A stretch of 63,491 nt of DNA, the filler included. It is 9 parts of 9 records of this genome, joined end to end, with 100 filler letters (N's around TTAATTAATTAA, not from the genome) between each part and the next. Parts side by side here need not be neighbours in the genome. Positions count along the whole stretch, not along the records: positions 39,484 to 44,720 come from SRR31156797_138260; 8 more parts are not named here. One strand, written 5' to 3'. Under the pieces are notes generated by a model. The model ran no database searches and was not told the origin of the DNA. It saw nothing but the letters and a program-made list of their open reading frames with translations. Below, piece by piece: positions 39,870-44,720 of this stretch. Position 1 is the first letter of the stretch. Each line of letters begins with the position of its first letter. The translations under genes were made by a program, and so were the position numbers.

Positions 39870-39898
39870 TTGACAGAAGCATTGAAACCGATAAGTAT
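39870..39898 (+). promoter_or_regulatory. Putative sigma70-type promoter for the HU gene
   Basis: TTGACA at 39870-39875 and a weak -10 (TAAGTA/AAGTAT) 16-17 bp downstream; AAGGAG SD before ATG 39981. Confidence 0.45.
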
Positions 39899-39980
39899 GT
39901 CCCGCTTCCAGCACTAATGGGACGGATTTCGGAGCGTATTCCGACTCCCCCTTTTCTGTGGACGCAAGGAGATCATCTGT

Positions 39981-40336: not shown

Positions 40337-40375
40337 ACAGGCCCACGTTGTCAGTCAGCACGTGGGCCTGTTTTT
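40337..40375 (+). terminator. Rho-independent terminator after the HU gene
   Basis: Perfect 12-bp stem ACAGGCCCACGT / ACGTGGGCCTGT, 11-nt loop, followed by a T run. Confidence 0.75.
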
Positions 40376-40725
40376 GACTTGAGATTGTCGACATTGCGAA
40401 CGTCCTGTTTCATCGCCTCCCGCCTAGCCTCATACCTCTCCCTGCTGATCCGAATCGCGTAGTCACGCAACTGCGTCCCAAACGTATTCTCAATCATCAG
40501 AATAGTCTCAAAGGCCTCCACATAGACATGGCTGAACAGCCGCTGGAATCGCCACCGCACGCCCTGCCGTGTCATGCGAAAGATCTTGTGGATCTTCTCG
40601 CCGTACGTACCCTTGAGAACCATGTAACTGGGGCTTGCAGCTTTCAACTCAACCCATAAGTCCTTCGACTCTATCAGTGCCTTCAGATTCTCCAAGAACG
40701 TCTTGTCTTTCTCCGTCAACTTCAT
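40351..40725 (-). CDS. Hypothetical protein, possible HTH DNA-binding protein
   Basis: 124 aa; IHKIFRMTRQGVRWRFQRL resembles an HTH recognition helix; last gene of the minus-strand operon. Confidence 0.6.
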   Translation of the reverse strand: MKLTEKDKTFLENLKALIESKDLWVELKAASPSYMVLKGTYGEKIHKIFRMTRQGVRWRFQRLFSHVYVEAFETILMIENTFGTQLRDYAIRISRERYEARREAMKQDVRNVDNLKSKTGPRAD

Positions 40726-41434
40726 GCTTCTTCACCATGATATCTCCCCCTTCGTGCCACACGTCCACGACCCCCGCATGGGCCAGGAATACAACCGCCA
40801 TGAACCTCCAGATCAGGTCCGTCCTCGGGCGTTCCCTGAGCGGTGGTATTTCAGCGAGGCTCACGGGACAATCGCGAATATGGACCTGTATGTGGTCCTC
40901 ATAAGCCTTGAGATCAAACCCATCGCCTGTCTCTATGGCCATGCTCTCATCAATGCCTGTAGTCAGGGCGTTCAATGCACCAACGAGGCCAGGCACGCTG
41001 CCAAGATCCGCATAGCCCAGGAGTAACTCACCGGACTGGCTCTCTGCCAACATCTGCCTGACCCGCTCCCGCTGCTCCTTCTTTCGTTTCCGTGACTCAG
41101 CCATCTTCAGCCGAAAGTAGTCTGGGTCAAACACGAGTCCATTGAAGAGGAACTTGGATGTGATGTCACTACCACAGTTGCTGCACTGGTACCGTCTCAC
41201 TCGCAACACGGGAACACCACCGCATTCTGAGCACCGCTGAAAAGCGACAGTCGGATCGAATTCCGTGCGACAGGAGATACACTGGCACATCCCCTCCGAC
41301 GTCATCGCCAACGAGCCACTGCAATTGGGGCAACGATGGCCAGTCAGCATCACACTGTAGAAGAACCTGCGGGCCCTCTCCAGGAAGGCCTCCACAGCCT
41401 CGGCCATCTCAAGGGCCAATAATCTGATGTTCAT
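40649..41434 (-). CDS. Multi zinc-ribbon protein with a ScpA/kleisin-like C-terminal winged helix
   Basis: Likely start MNIRLL at 41434. Four CxxC pairs (CPNC, CISC, CSEC, CSNC), a basic coiled segment, and C-terminal WRFMAVVFLAHAGVVDVWHEGGDIMV. Confidence 0.6.
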   Translation of the reverse strand: MNIRLLALEMAEAVEAFLERARRFFYSVMLTGHRCPNCSGSLAMTSEGMCQCISCRTEFDPTVAFQRCSECGGVPVLRVRRYQCSNCGSDITSKFLFNGLVFDPDYFRLKMAESRKRKKEQRERVRQMLAESQSGELLLGYADLGSVPGLVGALNALTTGIDESMAIETGDGFDLKAYEDHIQVHIRDCPVSLAEIPPLRERPRTDLIWRFMAVVFLAHAGVVDVWHEGGDIMVKKHEVDGERQDVLGESEGTDRVEGLMG

Positions 41435-41750
41435 CGCTCGGCTCTTCGGGCTCGATGGATGTTGGAGTCTGTGAATCGTCCGTTTCCAGCATCCCAGGCT
41501 CCTCTGCCTCGGACGCAATGGCCTGGCTGATGTCACCGGCCTCGGGCTCAACTGACTCTGCTGTCTTGGCCTGCGGGGCCTCTGACCCCTCATGCGGCAC
41601 CAGTTTCTGATTCCTGGGAGTGAATCTACGTCCACAGCTTTTGCATCGGCGGATCTTGCGGATTCCCATAGCCTTGGTTGTTCGCGACCCCTTACTTGTC
41701 GTATCCGTGCTACCGCAGTAGACACATTTGACAGGTCTTCCTCTTGGCAT
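41409..41750 (-). CDS. Small zinc-ribbon protein (IS1 InsA-like ribbon) with an acidic tail
   Basis: KCVYCGSTDTTSKG...RRCKSCGRRFT; GAGGTGAT SD upstream. Confidence 0.7.
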   Translation of the reverse strand: MPRGRPVKCVYCGSTDTTSKGSRTTKAMGIRKIRRCKSCGRRFTPRNQKLVPHEGSEAPQAKTAESVEPEAGDISQAIASEAEEPGMLETDDSQTPTSIEPEEPSDEHQIIGP

Positions 41751-41785
41751 TTGTAATCACCTCACGAGACCTTGAGAGGCCGGAG

Positions 41786-41801
41786 TTTATAAACCTGTCG
41801 G
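41786..41801 (-). promoter_or_regulatory. Archaeal-type BRE/TATA promoter candidate for the zinc-ribbon operon
   Basis: The minus strand reads CCGACAGG-TTTATAAA about 35 bp upstream of ATG 41750, followed by a GAGGTGAT SD. Confidence 0.5.
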
Positions 41802-41821
41802 TTTAGGGCCCGGGGGACAGT

Positions 41822-42010
41822 AGTTTTCGAGTGGAACTTCTGGAGCGACCTGAGCCGCGTGACGACCGTGCCAAGTCTACAGGTCAATGGCAGGCCCCTT
41901 GGTCGCGTATGAGATAAGATGCGAGCGTGTTCCACTGGAAGCCTGCTGCTCAGTGGCTCCATGAGAAGTGGTCCCGTGGCACACGAGTTTTCTAGTGGAA
42001 CCACTGGAAC
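41822..42010. repeat. ORB-like boxes, consensus GTTCCA(C/G)TNG, 4 copies
   Basis: 41822-41837 (-) GTTCCACTCGAAAACT; 41929-41941 (+) GTTCCACTGGAAG; 41986-42001 (-) GTTCCACTAGAAAACT; 41998-42010 (-) GTTCCAGTGGTTC. Confidence 0.65.
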
Positions 42011-42200
42011 GATATGGTTTCCGTCGGTCAAAACGTGCGCCATAGGGGGTACGGAGTTTACACGTCGCTACGTCAGATCATGGAGAGTCACCTGCAATCG
42101 TGCGAGCCGCTCAGTTGATCCCATCCTGCCGTAAACTCTCCCCCACGCATAAACTCCGGGTAGTAGGGGTTGGAGTTTACACGTCATCGAATGCTGATTC

Positions 42201-42250
42201 ATTATCTATTCTATCTTCTATTCTTTTCAATATAGAAGTATATTATATAG
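42201..42250. other. AT-rich tract, candidate DNA unwinding element
   Basis: 41 of 50 bases are A/T in an otherwise GC-balanced contig; flanked by inward-facing GGAGTTTA boxes. Confidence 0.6.
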
Positions 42251-42258
42251 CAAAGCGA

Positions 42259-42278
42259 TTGTCACTGACCAGTGACAA
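42259..42278. promoter_or_regulatory. Perfect inverted repeat, candidate dimeric protein binding site
   Basis: TTGTCACTG-AC-CAGTGACAA. Confidence 0.55.
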
Positions 42279-42400
42279 CAAAGAGCTATGAGATGGCACA
42301 CAACTGGCTGGCGCCTTCACGCTTAAACTCCGACCCCTACCCCTCATAAGATCAGATGCCAGAATAGTGTATAGAAGAAGCTGACGCGTAAACTCCAAGG

Positions 42401-43510
42401 TCACTCAAAGCGAAGCTTGCACGACTGCTCGGCAATCGCCTTATCGAATGTCAGAACGATCCGATTCGTATACGTGCGATCAATCTTGGCAGCCACCAAT
42501 GCCACGAGACCAACACTTTGGAGATATCCCAGGTTGGTATAGAAATACATATAGCTGAATGGTTTGATCTGATGATCGCGGCTATGGCGGCAGTACCGAT
42601 CATAGATATCCTTGACCAGATCTGATTGGCTCGTAGCTGCGGCCCACAGAATGATCAGATTCGCATCAGTCAGATCATTAACCTGGTCAATGACGATGTC
42701 TCTTCTCGCCGCTTCAAAGCATTCCGCAACACTGTCGTCCGGCTCAATCGTCTTATAGAACAAGGTCTTGATAGCCACGCGAGCATCCGAGTTGGTCCGC
42801 TGAGCCGTGAGGGCTGAGATCTGCGCGATGTGACTTTCGTCCCAGCCATTCAATCCCCTGCTGGCTCTGCCGAGCAGGATCTCGCCTAGCTGCTGGGCGT
42901 CGTAGTTTCGAAAGTACAACCGAAGCGGCTGTAGACTGCTGGACGTGGCCGCATCAAGTTGCTTCACCACATGCGGCGTGTTCGAGAGCATGATGACCAT
43001 ATAGGGTTGCTCGCTGCGACTGAGGAAATACAGAATCTCCCGGTTCTTGTCCTTGGGGCTCATCAGGTCCACCTCGTCCATGATCAGCACAGTCCGTTTC
43101 TGAAACTTCATCATAAACCGCTGATAGAGATCCCCCAGACTGGAGCCACCGATCTTCTCCTCGTCCAGCAAACGAGCGAAAATCTTGAAGCTCGTGTTAT
43201 GATGCCGGCAGTTCACATAAAGCACATCGAGTTCTGTCTTCTGAGAGACCATCCGCTGTAGGTACTTCAACATCAATGTCTTCCCCGAACCTCGGCTGCC
43301 GACAATGGCCATATGGGTTGGGATCCCGCTCATCTCGAACCGAAGCATGTGCTTGACGATCTGCTTGACTTCGGTCCGCTCGACCGGCTTTTCTGGTATG
43401 TAGTTGTAGTCGAAAACTGCAAAATCCTTCACTCGGCTTGAGGTTTGACCAAGATCTTCTCTCTTGTTGTCCAGGTAGGACGCGATATCCATGTGACGCA
43501 TCAACTCCAT
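42401..43510 (-). CDS. Orc1/Cdc6 family AAA+ replication initiator
   Basis: FDYNYIPEK, Walker A GSRGSGKT, LYVNC, Walker B LIMDEVD, ILYFLSR, FRNYDAQQLGEILLGRA, SDARVAI, and a wHTH-sized C-terminus. The start could be 43510, 43501 or 43492. Confidence 0.85.
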   Translation of the reverse strand: MELMRHMDIASYLDNKREDLGQTSSRVKDFAVFDYNYIPEKPVERTEVKQIVKHMLRFEMSGIPTHMAIVGSRGSGKTLMLKYLQRMVSQKTELDVLYVNCRHHNTSFKIFARLLDEEKIGGSSLGDLYQRFMMKFQKRTVLIMDEVDLMSPKDKNREILYFLSRSEQPYMVIMLSNTPHVVKQLDAATSSSLQPLRLYFRNYDAQQLGEILLGRASRGLNGWDESHIAQISALTAQRTNSDARVAIKTLFYKTIEPDDSVAECFEAARRDIVIDQVNDLTDANLIILWAAATSQSDLVKDIYDRYCRHSRDHQIKPFSYMYFYTNLGYLQSVGLVALVAAKIDRTYTNRIVLTFDKAIAEQSCKLRFE

Positions 43511-43531
43511 CCCCAGTATCAACTGAGCAAA

Positions 43532-43546
43532 TACTTAAACCTTTCG
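43532..43546 (-). promoter_or_regulatory. Archaeal-type BRE/TATA promoter candidate for the orc1/cdc6 gene
   Basis: The minus strand reads CGAAAGG-TTTAAGTA, ending about 22 bp before ATG 43510. Confidence 0.55.
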
Positions 43547-43647
43547 CGCCTCTCGGCAGTAGCAACCCAACAGGTGTCATCCGACTCACTGCTGAGCCGC
43601 CCATAAAAGCGCAACATATAAATAGTAGCGGCGCCATTAGGTCCCGT

Positions 43648-44720
43648 ATGAGACTCAAAGACTGGTGGCGTAACTGGCATCCGGAGGAATTGCTCGAAAG
43701 CTATCTACCGGATTTCATCCTGGCCTTCGCGTTCTTTACTTCAGTGGTCTATGCCGTTCTCGGCAAACGGTTTCAAAAACAACGGCCGGCAATTGCGATG
43801 TCGACGGCGATTGGCTTTGCTCTTTCCTTCGGCCTCGTATGGTGGGAGCAGGCAAATGACTTCTCCATTAAGAACCTCGGGCCAATCGCTGTCGGCTTTG
43901 CCCTTCTGCTGTTGGCCTTCGTCATGTACCAGTCCATTCACCAGATAGGTGGCTCTTGGGCTGGAGCAGGAATTACCATCGGACTAGCGATCATCATCGC
44001 CCAGTTGGTGGGAATGCCCATTCCCGTCGCCACCGAAATCATTCAGACAATCATCGTCGTTGCTTTGATCTTCGGATTGCTCGCCTTCATGTCGCACCGG
44101 CATCATCTGACTCCCCGAGTCCGTCCCTCCAAAACAGAATTACCAGATATCAAACACACCATGGCCAACCTCTATCGCCAGCGTCACCTCTCCAAAGGGC
44201 TTGACCATGGCCTGCAGAAACTCCGTAAGAAAGCCAAGACGCTCCAGGAACGTCCAGAAGAAGGCGGCAATATCCTTCGCCAGATCAAACGCATGCTACC
44301 GGCTCAGGGCTATCTGACCGAACGCATGGCCCAGCTTCGGGCCAAGGCCCATCAGGTTCGTAGTGGCCACATTGCCCGCCTCGAAGAAACACGTCAGGCA
44401 TTTGCCAAGCTGCCAACTCCGGCCAAGAAGAAGGCTGCCGCAGAACTCGCGGCCCGATACAACCAGATGGTCGGAATTGAGACCCGCCTCGAACGGCTTG
44501 ACCATGCGGCCGCCGAAAACGAAAAGCGCATCCGCGAACTGACTGCGAAGGCACAGGAATACACGGCCAAGTACGATTACCAGCAGCTTTGCCACACCCT
44601 AAAGGCCGCAGAGAAACTCCAGCATCACAACTCCAAGCTCATCAAGACTATCGAGCAGACAGAACACAAGCTCTCCGCAGTCGCGAAGGAAGTAGCAAAG
44701 GAGGTGAAGCAAGTTGAAAA
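43648..44720 (+). CDS. Membrane protein (about 5 TM) with a long C-terminal coiled coil (3'-truncated)
   Basis: Start MRLKDWW at 43648; hydrophobic N-half and heptad-rich C-half; TATAAATA at 43617-43624 and no obvious SD. Confidence 0.7.

Follow-up and report, generated by a model that had tools for sequence, protein, structure and literature searches.

The 63.5-kb window analysed here (by which we mean the whole stretch of DNA, several contigs joined end to end) contains, on a single contig, a putative replication and maintenance module composed of a gene for a divergent Orc1/Cdc6-family initiator (orc1), an origin-like intergenic region, the zinc-ribbon operon zr113-zr261-p124 and a membrane gene divergent to orc1. 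Each of the three transcription units of this module is preceded by a TATA-like box with an element resembling the archaeal B recognition element (BRE) upstream of it, and these motifs keep both their sequence and their distance from the gene in homologs that reside in bacterial contigs, although no TATA-binding protein (TBP) or transcription factor B (TFB) was detected in the related host genomes that were searched. We propose that the boxes are element-specific promoters, at which transcription would start ~22 nt past the box and which would be used by the bacterial RNA polymerase together with an undiscovered factor, a reading to which we give an even chance of being right.

Conserved boxes ahead of three transcription units

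The sequence-only reading of this DNA had placed a BRE/TATA-like motif before each of the three units, and direct inspection of the sequence finds all of them where it had put them (Table 1). At orc1, 21 nt separate the box from the ATG at 43510, which had been taken as the start codon. The homologs correct this assignment: their conserved start corresponds to the ATG at 43492 (M-D-I-A), and the six codons at 43510-43492 are out of frame, interrupted by stops or devoid of a start codon in several of them (the longest orc1 open reading frame (ORF) begins at TTG 43522). The segment GGAGTTGATGCGT, which falls within these codons (43508-43496), reads as a conserved iteron-like DNA element, similar to the repeats of the origin region, rather than as coding sequence.

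A box that matches TTTAWAWA in at least 7 of 8 positions lies 34-54 nt before the ATG in 96 of 117 distinct orc1 upstream regions, compared with 4.4 on average and at most 11 in 200 shuffles of these regions, and the position profile peaks at 39 nt (34 sequences) and 40 nt (29) before the ATG. Twenty of the 21 regions below this threshold hold a 6/8 box in the same interval, and the last one a 4/8 box. The BRE-like columns of the orc1 set (n=116) are dominated by C at -7 (91), G at -6 (79), A at -5 (91), A at -4 (86) and A at -3 (100). In the zinc-ribbon operon, 22 nt lie between the box and a Shine-Dalgarno (SD)-like sequence that reads GAGGTGAT in 32 of the 35 distinct homologous upstream regions, GAGGTGAC in two and GAGGTGAA in one; a box (at least 7/8) stands 22-24 nt before the GAGGTGA in 32 of the 35. 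The membrane gene, for which no SD was found before the ATG at 43648, has its box 23 nt upstream of that codon, and 22 of 24 homologs carry one (at least 6/8) about 21-23 nt, mostly 23, before the ATG. Its BRE-like columns (n=22) show C at -7 in 21 sequences and A at both -4 and -3 in 22/22, and the gene keeps ATTA-like bases at -12 to -9. Taken together, homolog conservation, the shuffles and the column counts rule out a chance origin of the boxes. The sequence-only reading had staked itself on the motifs holding their positions among homologs, and in the comparison of upstream regions they do so in all three sets.

A position weight matrix (PWM) trained on the orc1 promoters scores the orc1 box at 22.9 bits in the 63-kb window, and the operon box is the best match outside the training set. 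The membrane-gene box, with 9.5 bits, ranks 12 of 27 window matches of at least 8 bits; judged by matrix score within the window, the orc1 and operon boxes stand out and the third does not. Across 411 kb of loci the matrix gives 117 matches that reach 13 bits or more, compared with 35 when the sequence is reversed, and 58 of the 117 fall outside the three known promoters. Outside the loci the picture differs: counts of GAAANNTTTAWAWA against the reversed control in five host genomes were 0/0, 31/45, 5/9, 1/0 and 1/1, and the lone match in one of these genomes (G004) is the operon promoter adjoining orc1. In the same genome, there are 4 and 3 matches of 12 bits or more within two copies of the element versus 0 and 1 in the flanks. 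By these counts the boxes are specific to the module and not a general motif of the hosts.

The spacing between box and gene is constrained as well. When PWM matches of at least 14 bits followed by an ATG-initiated ORF of at least 50 aa were collected, they comprised 21 ORF families besides orc1, and in 8 of these the modal gap between box and ATG is 21-24 nt, a value seen at 5.3% of random positions. Where an SD is present, it begins 22-24 nt past the box, and at orc1 the second iteron-like site starts ~22 nt past it. Measured to the start codon or SD, the distance from the centre of the box is 26-27.5 nt.

This arrangement is reminiscent of the haloarchaeal core promoter, which, in excerpts of two papers, has CGAAA as its BRE, a TATA box with its centre at -27/-28, and WW at -10/-11 (PMC2151090; PMC4983044). 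Set against the excerpted description, the module shares the CGAAA-like element 1-2 nt before an 8-nt TTTAWAWA box, the distance of the box centre from the start codon in leaderless-looking genes, and, in the membrane gene, an A/T pair near -11/-10. It differs in that the searched hosts are bacterial and contain no TBP, TFB or Rpb5, and in that the distances are counted from genes and not from mapped starts.

Like a sigma-70 promoter (TTGACA, N17, TATAAT), the boxes present an A/T-rich hexamer-like core upstream of genes, but they have no -35 partner, their last base is A (93/116, 22/22 and 32/34 in the orc1, membrane and operon sets) and not T (2, 0 and 1), and TAnnnT hexamers overlapping the box are scarce (10/116, 2/22 and 9/34). 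A sigma-70 consensus scan of the contig returned 4 sites, against 3.3 ± 1.7 expected, all of them in the AT-rich stretch of the origin region and none at any box, and no -35 element was found 16-18 nt upstream of the boxes. Judged by these features, the three boxes are not sigma-70 -10 elements. The neighbouring gene for an HU/IHF-like protein offers a contrast that the sequence-only reading had already drawn, archaeal-looking signals in the module versus bacterial ones at HU, and this contrast holds: the HU gene has TTGACA, N17 and AAGTAT, followed by a long leader and an AAGGAG SD at 39966-39971, and HU homologs at two other loci (L029 and L054) have sigma-70-like promoters of the same kind upstream. 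Further geometries were examined by eye in the alignments and set aside: an extracytoplasmic function (ECF)-type promoter (GGAAC, N16-17, CGT), whose limit is exceeded by the 25-29 nt distances; a sigma-54 (-24/-12) promoter, for which GG and GC are missing at the required places; a MerR-type spacer operator, given the poor flanking hexamers; and an IHF consensus site, to which no match was seen.

Reading the boxes in a bacterial host

To account for the signals, the sequence-only reading had envisaged TBP/TFB-like machinery encoded elsewhere, a suggestion that found no footing in our searches, which covered related host genomes (incomplete metagenome-assembled genomes, MAGs) and not the window's own. 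TBP was absent from five, and then from another four, related bacterial genomes carrying the module, and TFIIB and Rpb5 (PF01191) were each absent from five; archaeal controls were positive for TBP and TFIIB, and the Rpb5 control matched in 4 archaeal genomes. All five hosts have DnaA, and each genome contains 14-36 sigma-70-family genes. A Pfam scan of 125 flanking or element ORFs found no TBP, TFB or Rpb5 family, and structural models of two operon proteins (see below) were also negative. A search for a hidden polymerase by its D-x-DGD signature over all loci gave two ORFs, neither with an RNA-polymerase-like Pfam match, and an ORF (L080:13193-14509) that resembled a sigma factor on visual inspection had no Pfam match even at E 5. 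The one TBP-positive genome is an archaeal MAG whose bin holds an 11-kb contig (L126/L163). This contig contains element genes only (among them a HerA-like gene and an orc1 homolog with 49% identity), along with boxes of the kind described above; because it is short, has a G+C content of 41% and was placed by binning alone, its host assignment is not trustworthy. Given the incompleteness of the MAGs and the lack of a family assignment for most element proteins, a factor may have gone unrecognised.

In the mechanism that we propose, the three boxes would be the core promoters of the replication and maintenance module (membrane gene, orc1, origin and zr113-zr261-p124), which would itself descend from an archaeal plasmid-type replicon. 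Such a descent would explain the Orc1/Cdc6-type initiator, the cores resembling origin recognition boxes (ORBs), the inverted iterons around an AT-rich stretch and the promoter code, namely a CGAAA-like element followed after 1-2 nt by TTTAWAWA, which selection would have kept in the bacterial hosts. With starts ~22 nt past each box, the membrane gene would give a leaderless mRNA, the zinc-ribbon operon an mRNA that begins at its SD, and orc1 an mRNA with an 18-nt leader made of iteron. Regulator sites would then sit at the predicted starts, the iterons at orc1 allowing the initiator to repress its own synthesis and GGTCyCGT occupying the other two promoters. Since the searched hosts are without TBP, TFB and archaeal RNA polymerase, the enzyme that reads the boxes should be the bacterial RNA polymerase, presumably guided by a specificity factor that could be encoded by the element or be an unusual host sigma. 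At the middle promoters of phage T4, a MotA box centred near -30 substitutes for the -35 element. The phage thereby offers a precedent for an element-encoded factor that redirects the bacterial RNA polymerase, although the analogy is functional only: neither sequences nor proteins are similar, and no protein resembling MotA or AsiA was found.

The longer motif GGTCnCGT(A/G)(T/A)GAG is present at two of the predicted starts (43640-43653 and 41771-41757) and at a gene-free site in the origin region (41901-41914), and could be bound by a regulator common to them.

Several points weigh against this proposal. The start ~22 nt past the box is predicted from the spacing, and no bacterial factor or sigma-70-family geometry is known to recognise a box whose centre is near -27. 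All 8 ORF families with the 21-24 nt gap come from related elements, and the gap could in part reflect descent instead of selection. The operon does not supply an obvious factor either: neither zr261 nor p124 has, in its model, a fold like that of sigma, TBP or TFB, and zr113 offers no more than its zinc ribbon. Finally, there is conserved complementarity in the putative leaders, CCTC...GAGG in the operon and GGTCTC...GAGACC across the membrane-gene start; if it reflects RNA pairing, transcription must start just past the box, as it does at a bacterial -10 element.

This complementarity belongs to an alternative that we consider unlikely but far from negligible, in which the box is a -10-like melting element for the ordinary sigma-70 holoenzyme, the start lies ~7 nt after it and the archaeal look is a relic. 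The next 15-16 nt, which are conserved, would then be a 5' leader with hairpins, which would provide an anti-SD in the operon and a stem over the start codon in the membrane gene. Archaeal TATA boxes do resemble TATAAT, the searched hosts hold bacterial sigma factors and neither TBP nor TFB, CCTC (or TCTC or CCTT, allowing G-U) stands 12-15 nt before the near-invariant SD in most of the 35 operon upstream regions, and GGTCyCGT-ATGAGAC is self-complementary. A check for hairpin covariation in the leaders found the 3' partners (GAGG; coding ATGAGAC) invariant, and because GAGG never varies there are no true compensatory changes. Against a -10 role, the would-be T-7 is the very position that is A in most sequences and hardly ever T, TAnnnT is infrequent in all three sets and the -35 element is missing; moreover, this explanation gives no role to the conserved CGAAA 1-2 nt before the box and leaves the 21-24 nt gap of the 8 in 21 ORF families, well beyond the random expectation, unexplained.

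It is also conceivable, if very unlikely, that the boxes are not promoters but bending or binding sites of an architectural protein (HU/IHF-like or zr113) that acts in replication or partition. Boxes rich in A/T commonly act as bending sites, three lineages have an HU/IHF-like gene alongside the module, and the operon box (41786-41793) overlaps an iteron-like word, GGAGTTTA. Yet the boxes always point towards a gene and are separated from the start codon or SD by 21-24 nt, in the 8 unrelated families as well, the 137-nt spacer between orc1 and the membrane gene has no other promoter candidate in the sigma-70 scan, and inspection by eye gave no match to the IHF consensus. True TBP/TFB promoters, used either during expression in an archaeon (through shuttling, or with the hosts misbinned) or by unrecognisable TBP/TFB analogues along with the element's own polymerase, strike us as most improbable. 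In motif and spacing, and in the WW-like ATTA that the membrane gene has at -12 to -9, the signals do match the haloarchaeal promoter as excerpted, most element ORFs have no known family, and the 11-kb element-only contig was binned with a TBP-holding archaeal MAG; a short contig of that composition, however, is unassignable by binning alone, and copies of the element lie inside bacterial contigs of 100-910 kb, beside ECF sigma genes on the same contig and with a G+C content equal to that of the flanks. The negative searches for TBP, TFIIB and Rpb5 also stand against it, as does the size of the conserved core, a ~5-kb stretch on the window's contig that is too small to encode a polymerase.

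Orc1, the putative origin region and the bacterial hosts

The orc1 product matches TIGR02928 over residues 31-338 (9.3e-36; 123 bits, under the curated cut-off of 181) and Orc1/Cdc6 chains in PDB, the best being 2qby_A (4.7e-17) and the others weaker, which characterises it as a divergent Orc1/Cdc6 relative. Of 72,556 plasmid records in PLSDB, 354 hold a relative of this protein, and the 15 among them that were listed are all archaeal-named, with at most ~29% identity. The best plasmid match, at E 5e-44, is a Cdc6-like protein of Picrophilus oshimae pPO1 (NC_016049.1). With 363 aa it is as long as the orc1 product, to which it is 29% identical over the full length, and its gene is preceded by CAAAG-TTTTATATA; unlike the module, pPO1 is a free archaeal plasmid of 7.6 kb without a zinc-ribbon operon or membrane gene, and the identity is only 29%. 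In three metagenome contigs (L034:3229-4317, L035:431-1519 and L036:500-1588), an otherwise intact orc1 homolog (77% identity) carries the same in-frame TAA at codon 84; this could mark a pseudogene lineage or a read-through site.

The intergenic region next to orc1 combines several features of an origin (Table 1). Cores such as GTTCCACTGGAAGC and GTTCCACTCGAAAAC have 1-3 mismatches to the published ORB core GTTCCAGTGGAAAC (archaeal ORB consensus CTTCCAGTGGAAACGAAAGGGGT; PMC4153887 Table 2), and the first of the cores is kept upstream of the zr113 promoter at four other loci (L071, L028, L020 and L046). Over the whole window the ORB-like pattern is not above chance (16 sites versus 9.6 ± 3.2 expected), but it clusters, in that 3 of the 5 window sites with at most 2 mismatches fall within 180 bp here. 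The dominant repeat is the iteron GGAGTTTAYRCGT, with a sixth, degenerate copy at the 5' end of orc1, so that all 6 matches in the 63-kb window lie inside the module; the copies at 42172 (+) and 42319 (-) are inverted on either side of the AT-rich stretch. The region has the inverted repeats around an AT-rich element that are expected of an origin next to an Orc1/Cdc6 initiator. In its layout it resembles the archaeal origins adjacent to orc1/cdc6, with the initiator beside inverted repeats that flank a stretch of 78% A+T, cores near the ORB core, and repeats present at the initiator promoter as well. It differs from ORB origins in that the dominant repeat is not the ORB consensus and the G-string and the core are on opposite strands; an MCM was not seen, and the setting is a bacterial integrative element. 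As far as sequence comparison goes, these data support a replication module of archaeal type.

Relatives of the module were collected by scans of species-representative genomes (14 loci), by a profile search that gave 110 relatives, of which 80 were kept, and by a metagenome scan that added 46 further loci. In a protein collection, 901 Orc1 relatives were found at E <= 0.001; the best 120 of them have 56-91% identity, and those that are named belong to Planctomycetota. Within bacterial contigs of up to 910 kb, mostly from Planctomycetota, the Orc1 family spans 43-94% amino-acid identity. The host MAGs are mostly Phycisphaerae, Pirellulales, Planctomycetales, Sedimentisphaerales and Brocadiia; a few loci were binned with other phyla and one with an archaeon, and the module is present in 5 of 401 sampled genomes of the phylum. 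The order of membrane gene, orc1, intergenic region and zr113-zr261-p124 recurs, sometimes with insertions between the parts, and the most distant group has the operon in divergent orientation to orc1. Neighbouring genes include tyrosine integrases (L003, L007 and L061), Thoeris TIR, AbiEii, Fic and HerA-like ATPases, along with many unknowns.

One genome, G004, contains two diverged copies of the element (contig 23, 141.7-181.4 kb, and contig 28, 20.5-58.4 kb; L074-L080), which are 67-82% identical over ~40 kb and put the size of the element at 40 kb or more, with a G+C content equal to that of the flanks. Each copy encodes two HerA/VirB4-like ATPases and a Replic_Relax protein. Most genes of the two copies belong to no family, and the few others that do are AAA and ThiF. 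Just beyond the shared region on contig 23 (L012:191-4085) lie thymidylate-synthase-like, Nmad2, dCTP-deaminase-like and Thoeris TIR genes, a set that hints at nucleotide-modification or defence cargo. With their patchy distribution, integrases and defence genes in the vicinity, variable cargo and two copies in one genome, the carriers indicate that the module belongs to an integrative mobile element long resident in bacteria. The sequence-only reading had considered a recent cross-domain transfer; because the Orc1 family is deeply diversified within bacteria, the G+C content in one genome is that of the flanks and the nearest archaeal relatives share only ~29% identity, the transfer, to judge from these comparisons, is old and not recent. 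No relatives of the module were found in IMG/VR or phage records, and no description of the element family was found in the literature searched (supplements lay outside that search).

Gene layout and significance

The window consists of nine contigs chained by N44-TTAATTAATTAA-N44 spacers (eight spacer sites, 8395-58145), and its G+C content, taken per 2 kb, varies between 0.48 and 0.67, so that adjoining contigs are perhaps not neighbours in a genome and perhaps come from different organisms. The module sits on one 5.2-kb contig (39484-44720), in the order HU/IHF-like gene (+), zr113-zr261-p124 operon (-), 650-bp intergenic region, orc1 (-) and divergent membrane gene (+).

Table 1 Coordinates of the features of the module and its contig.
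Feature	Position	Strand	Basis or remark
BRE-like CGAAAGG (43546-43540) and, directly after it, TATA-like TTTAAGTA (43539-43532) of orc1	43532..43546	-	sequence reading and homolog conservation
Two iteron-like sites between box and orc1 start: GTTGATAC (43523-43516) and GGAGTTGATGCGT (43508-43496)	43496..43523	-	candidate autoregulatory operators
BRE-like CCGACAGG (41801-41794) and TATA-like TTTATAAA (41793-41786) of the zinc-ribbon operon	41786..41801	-	sequence reading; PWM 15.8 bits
Shine-Dalgarno-like GAGGTGAT, 5 nt before ATG 41750	41756..41763	-	GAGGTGA in 35/35 distinct homologous upstream regions
Operator-like GGTCTCGT directly before the SD, common to the membrane-gene start region	41764..41771	-	homolog listings
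BRE-like CGCAACA and TATA-like TATAAATA (43617-43624) of the membrane gene	43610..43624	+	sequence reading; homolog listing
Operator-like near-palindrome GGTCCCGT-ATGAGAC over the start codon	43640..43654	+	homolog listings
Third copy of the GGTCnCGTATGAGA motif, in the origin region, away from gene starts	41901..41914	+	repeat family D3
ORB-like core cluster: GTTCCACTCGAAAAC 41838-41824 (-), GTTCCACTGGAAGC 41929-41942 (+), GTTCCACTAGAAAAC 42002-41988 (-), GTTCCAGTGGTT 42010-41999 (-)	41824..42010	.
Five iterons GGAGTTTAYRCGT: 42053-42065 (+), 42145-42157 (-), 42172-42184 (+), 42319-42331 (-), 42384-42396 (-)	42053..42396	.
AT-rich 60-bp stretch, candidate DNA-unwinding element	42197..42256	.	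78% A+T versus 46% for the contig
Orc1/Cdc6-family AAA+ protein, 363 aa from the conserved start	42401..43492	-	TIGR02928 and PDB matches
zr113, small basic zinc-ribbon protein, first gene of the operon	41409..41750	-	Pfam Zn_ribbon_NrdR 6e-7
zr261, two zinc ribbons, long helix and C-terminal winged-helix-like domain	40649..41434	-	invariant Cys pairs in alignment
p124, small conserved protein, last gene of the operon	40351..40725	-	conserved in 13 loci
Membrane protein, N-terminal hydrophobic region and long coiled-coil tail	43648..44720	+	ORF truncated by contig end
HU/IHF-like DNA-binding protein, 110 aa	39981..40313	+	Pfam Bac_DNA_binding 5.9e-19
Sigma-70-like HU promoter: TTGACA (39870-39875), N17, AAGTAT	39870..39898	+	sequence reading; contrast case

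Among the proteins of the operon, zr113 has a conserved core of ~50 aa that was found in 17 loci. The model of zr261 (predicted local distance difference test (pLDDT) 69) weakly matches the C-terminal winged helix of ScpA (best E 0.012), and an Atlas search retrieved its own clusters and, as a lead only, ScpA (0.76-0.79). For p124, no Pfam or NCBIfam family was matched, its model (pLDDT 85) gave no fold match better than E 0.33 and the Atlas search found nothing. The membrane protein, whose homologs stand divergent to orc1 in many loci, has no Pfam family. Weak winged-helix and ScpB-like matches were seen for p124, and weak Rad50/SMC-like matches for the coiled coil of the membrane protein; zr261, p124 and the membrane protein might form a joint segregation device of the element. 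The HU/IHF-like protein has an N-terminal extension rich in Lys and Ala, and its homologs (58-88% identity) occur near the module in three lineages (L001/L029 and L054 included); it may be a member of the element in spite of its bacterial-type promoter.

Promoter recognition is among the sharpest molecular divides between bacteria and archaea, and that a bacterial mobile-element family runs on a TATA/BRE code with archaeal geometry is a claim that we regard as doubtful. If it were true, an element factor would make the bacterial RNA polymerase start ~22 nt past a TATA box, a form of promoter recognition undescribed in bacteria, or else the element would have an unrecognised polymerase of its own or be expressed in both domains. 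The element resides in bacterial chromosomes and, through deep divergence, has retained an archaeal-type initiator, an archaeal-looking origin and an archaeal-looking promoter code with archaeal spacing. Something new may steer the bacterial polymerase to the boxes, or an inherited TATA box may suffice for the bacterial enzyme, in which case it would indicate how genes can be passed on successfully between domains. In Planctomycetota, the module could also find use as a replicon for genetic tools.

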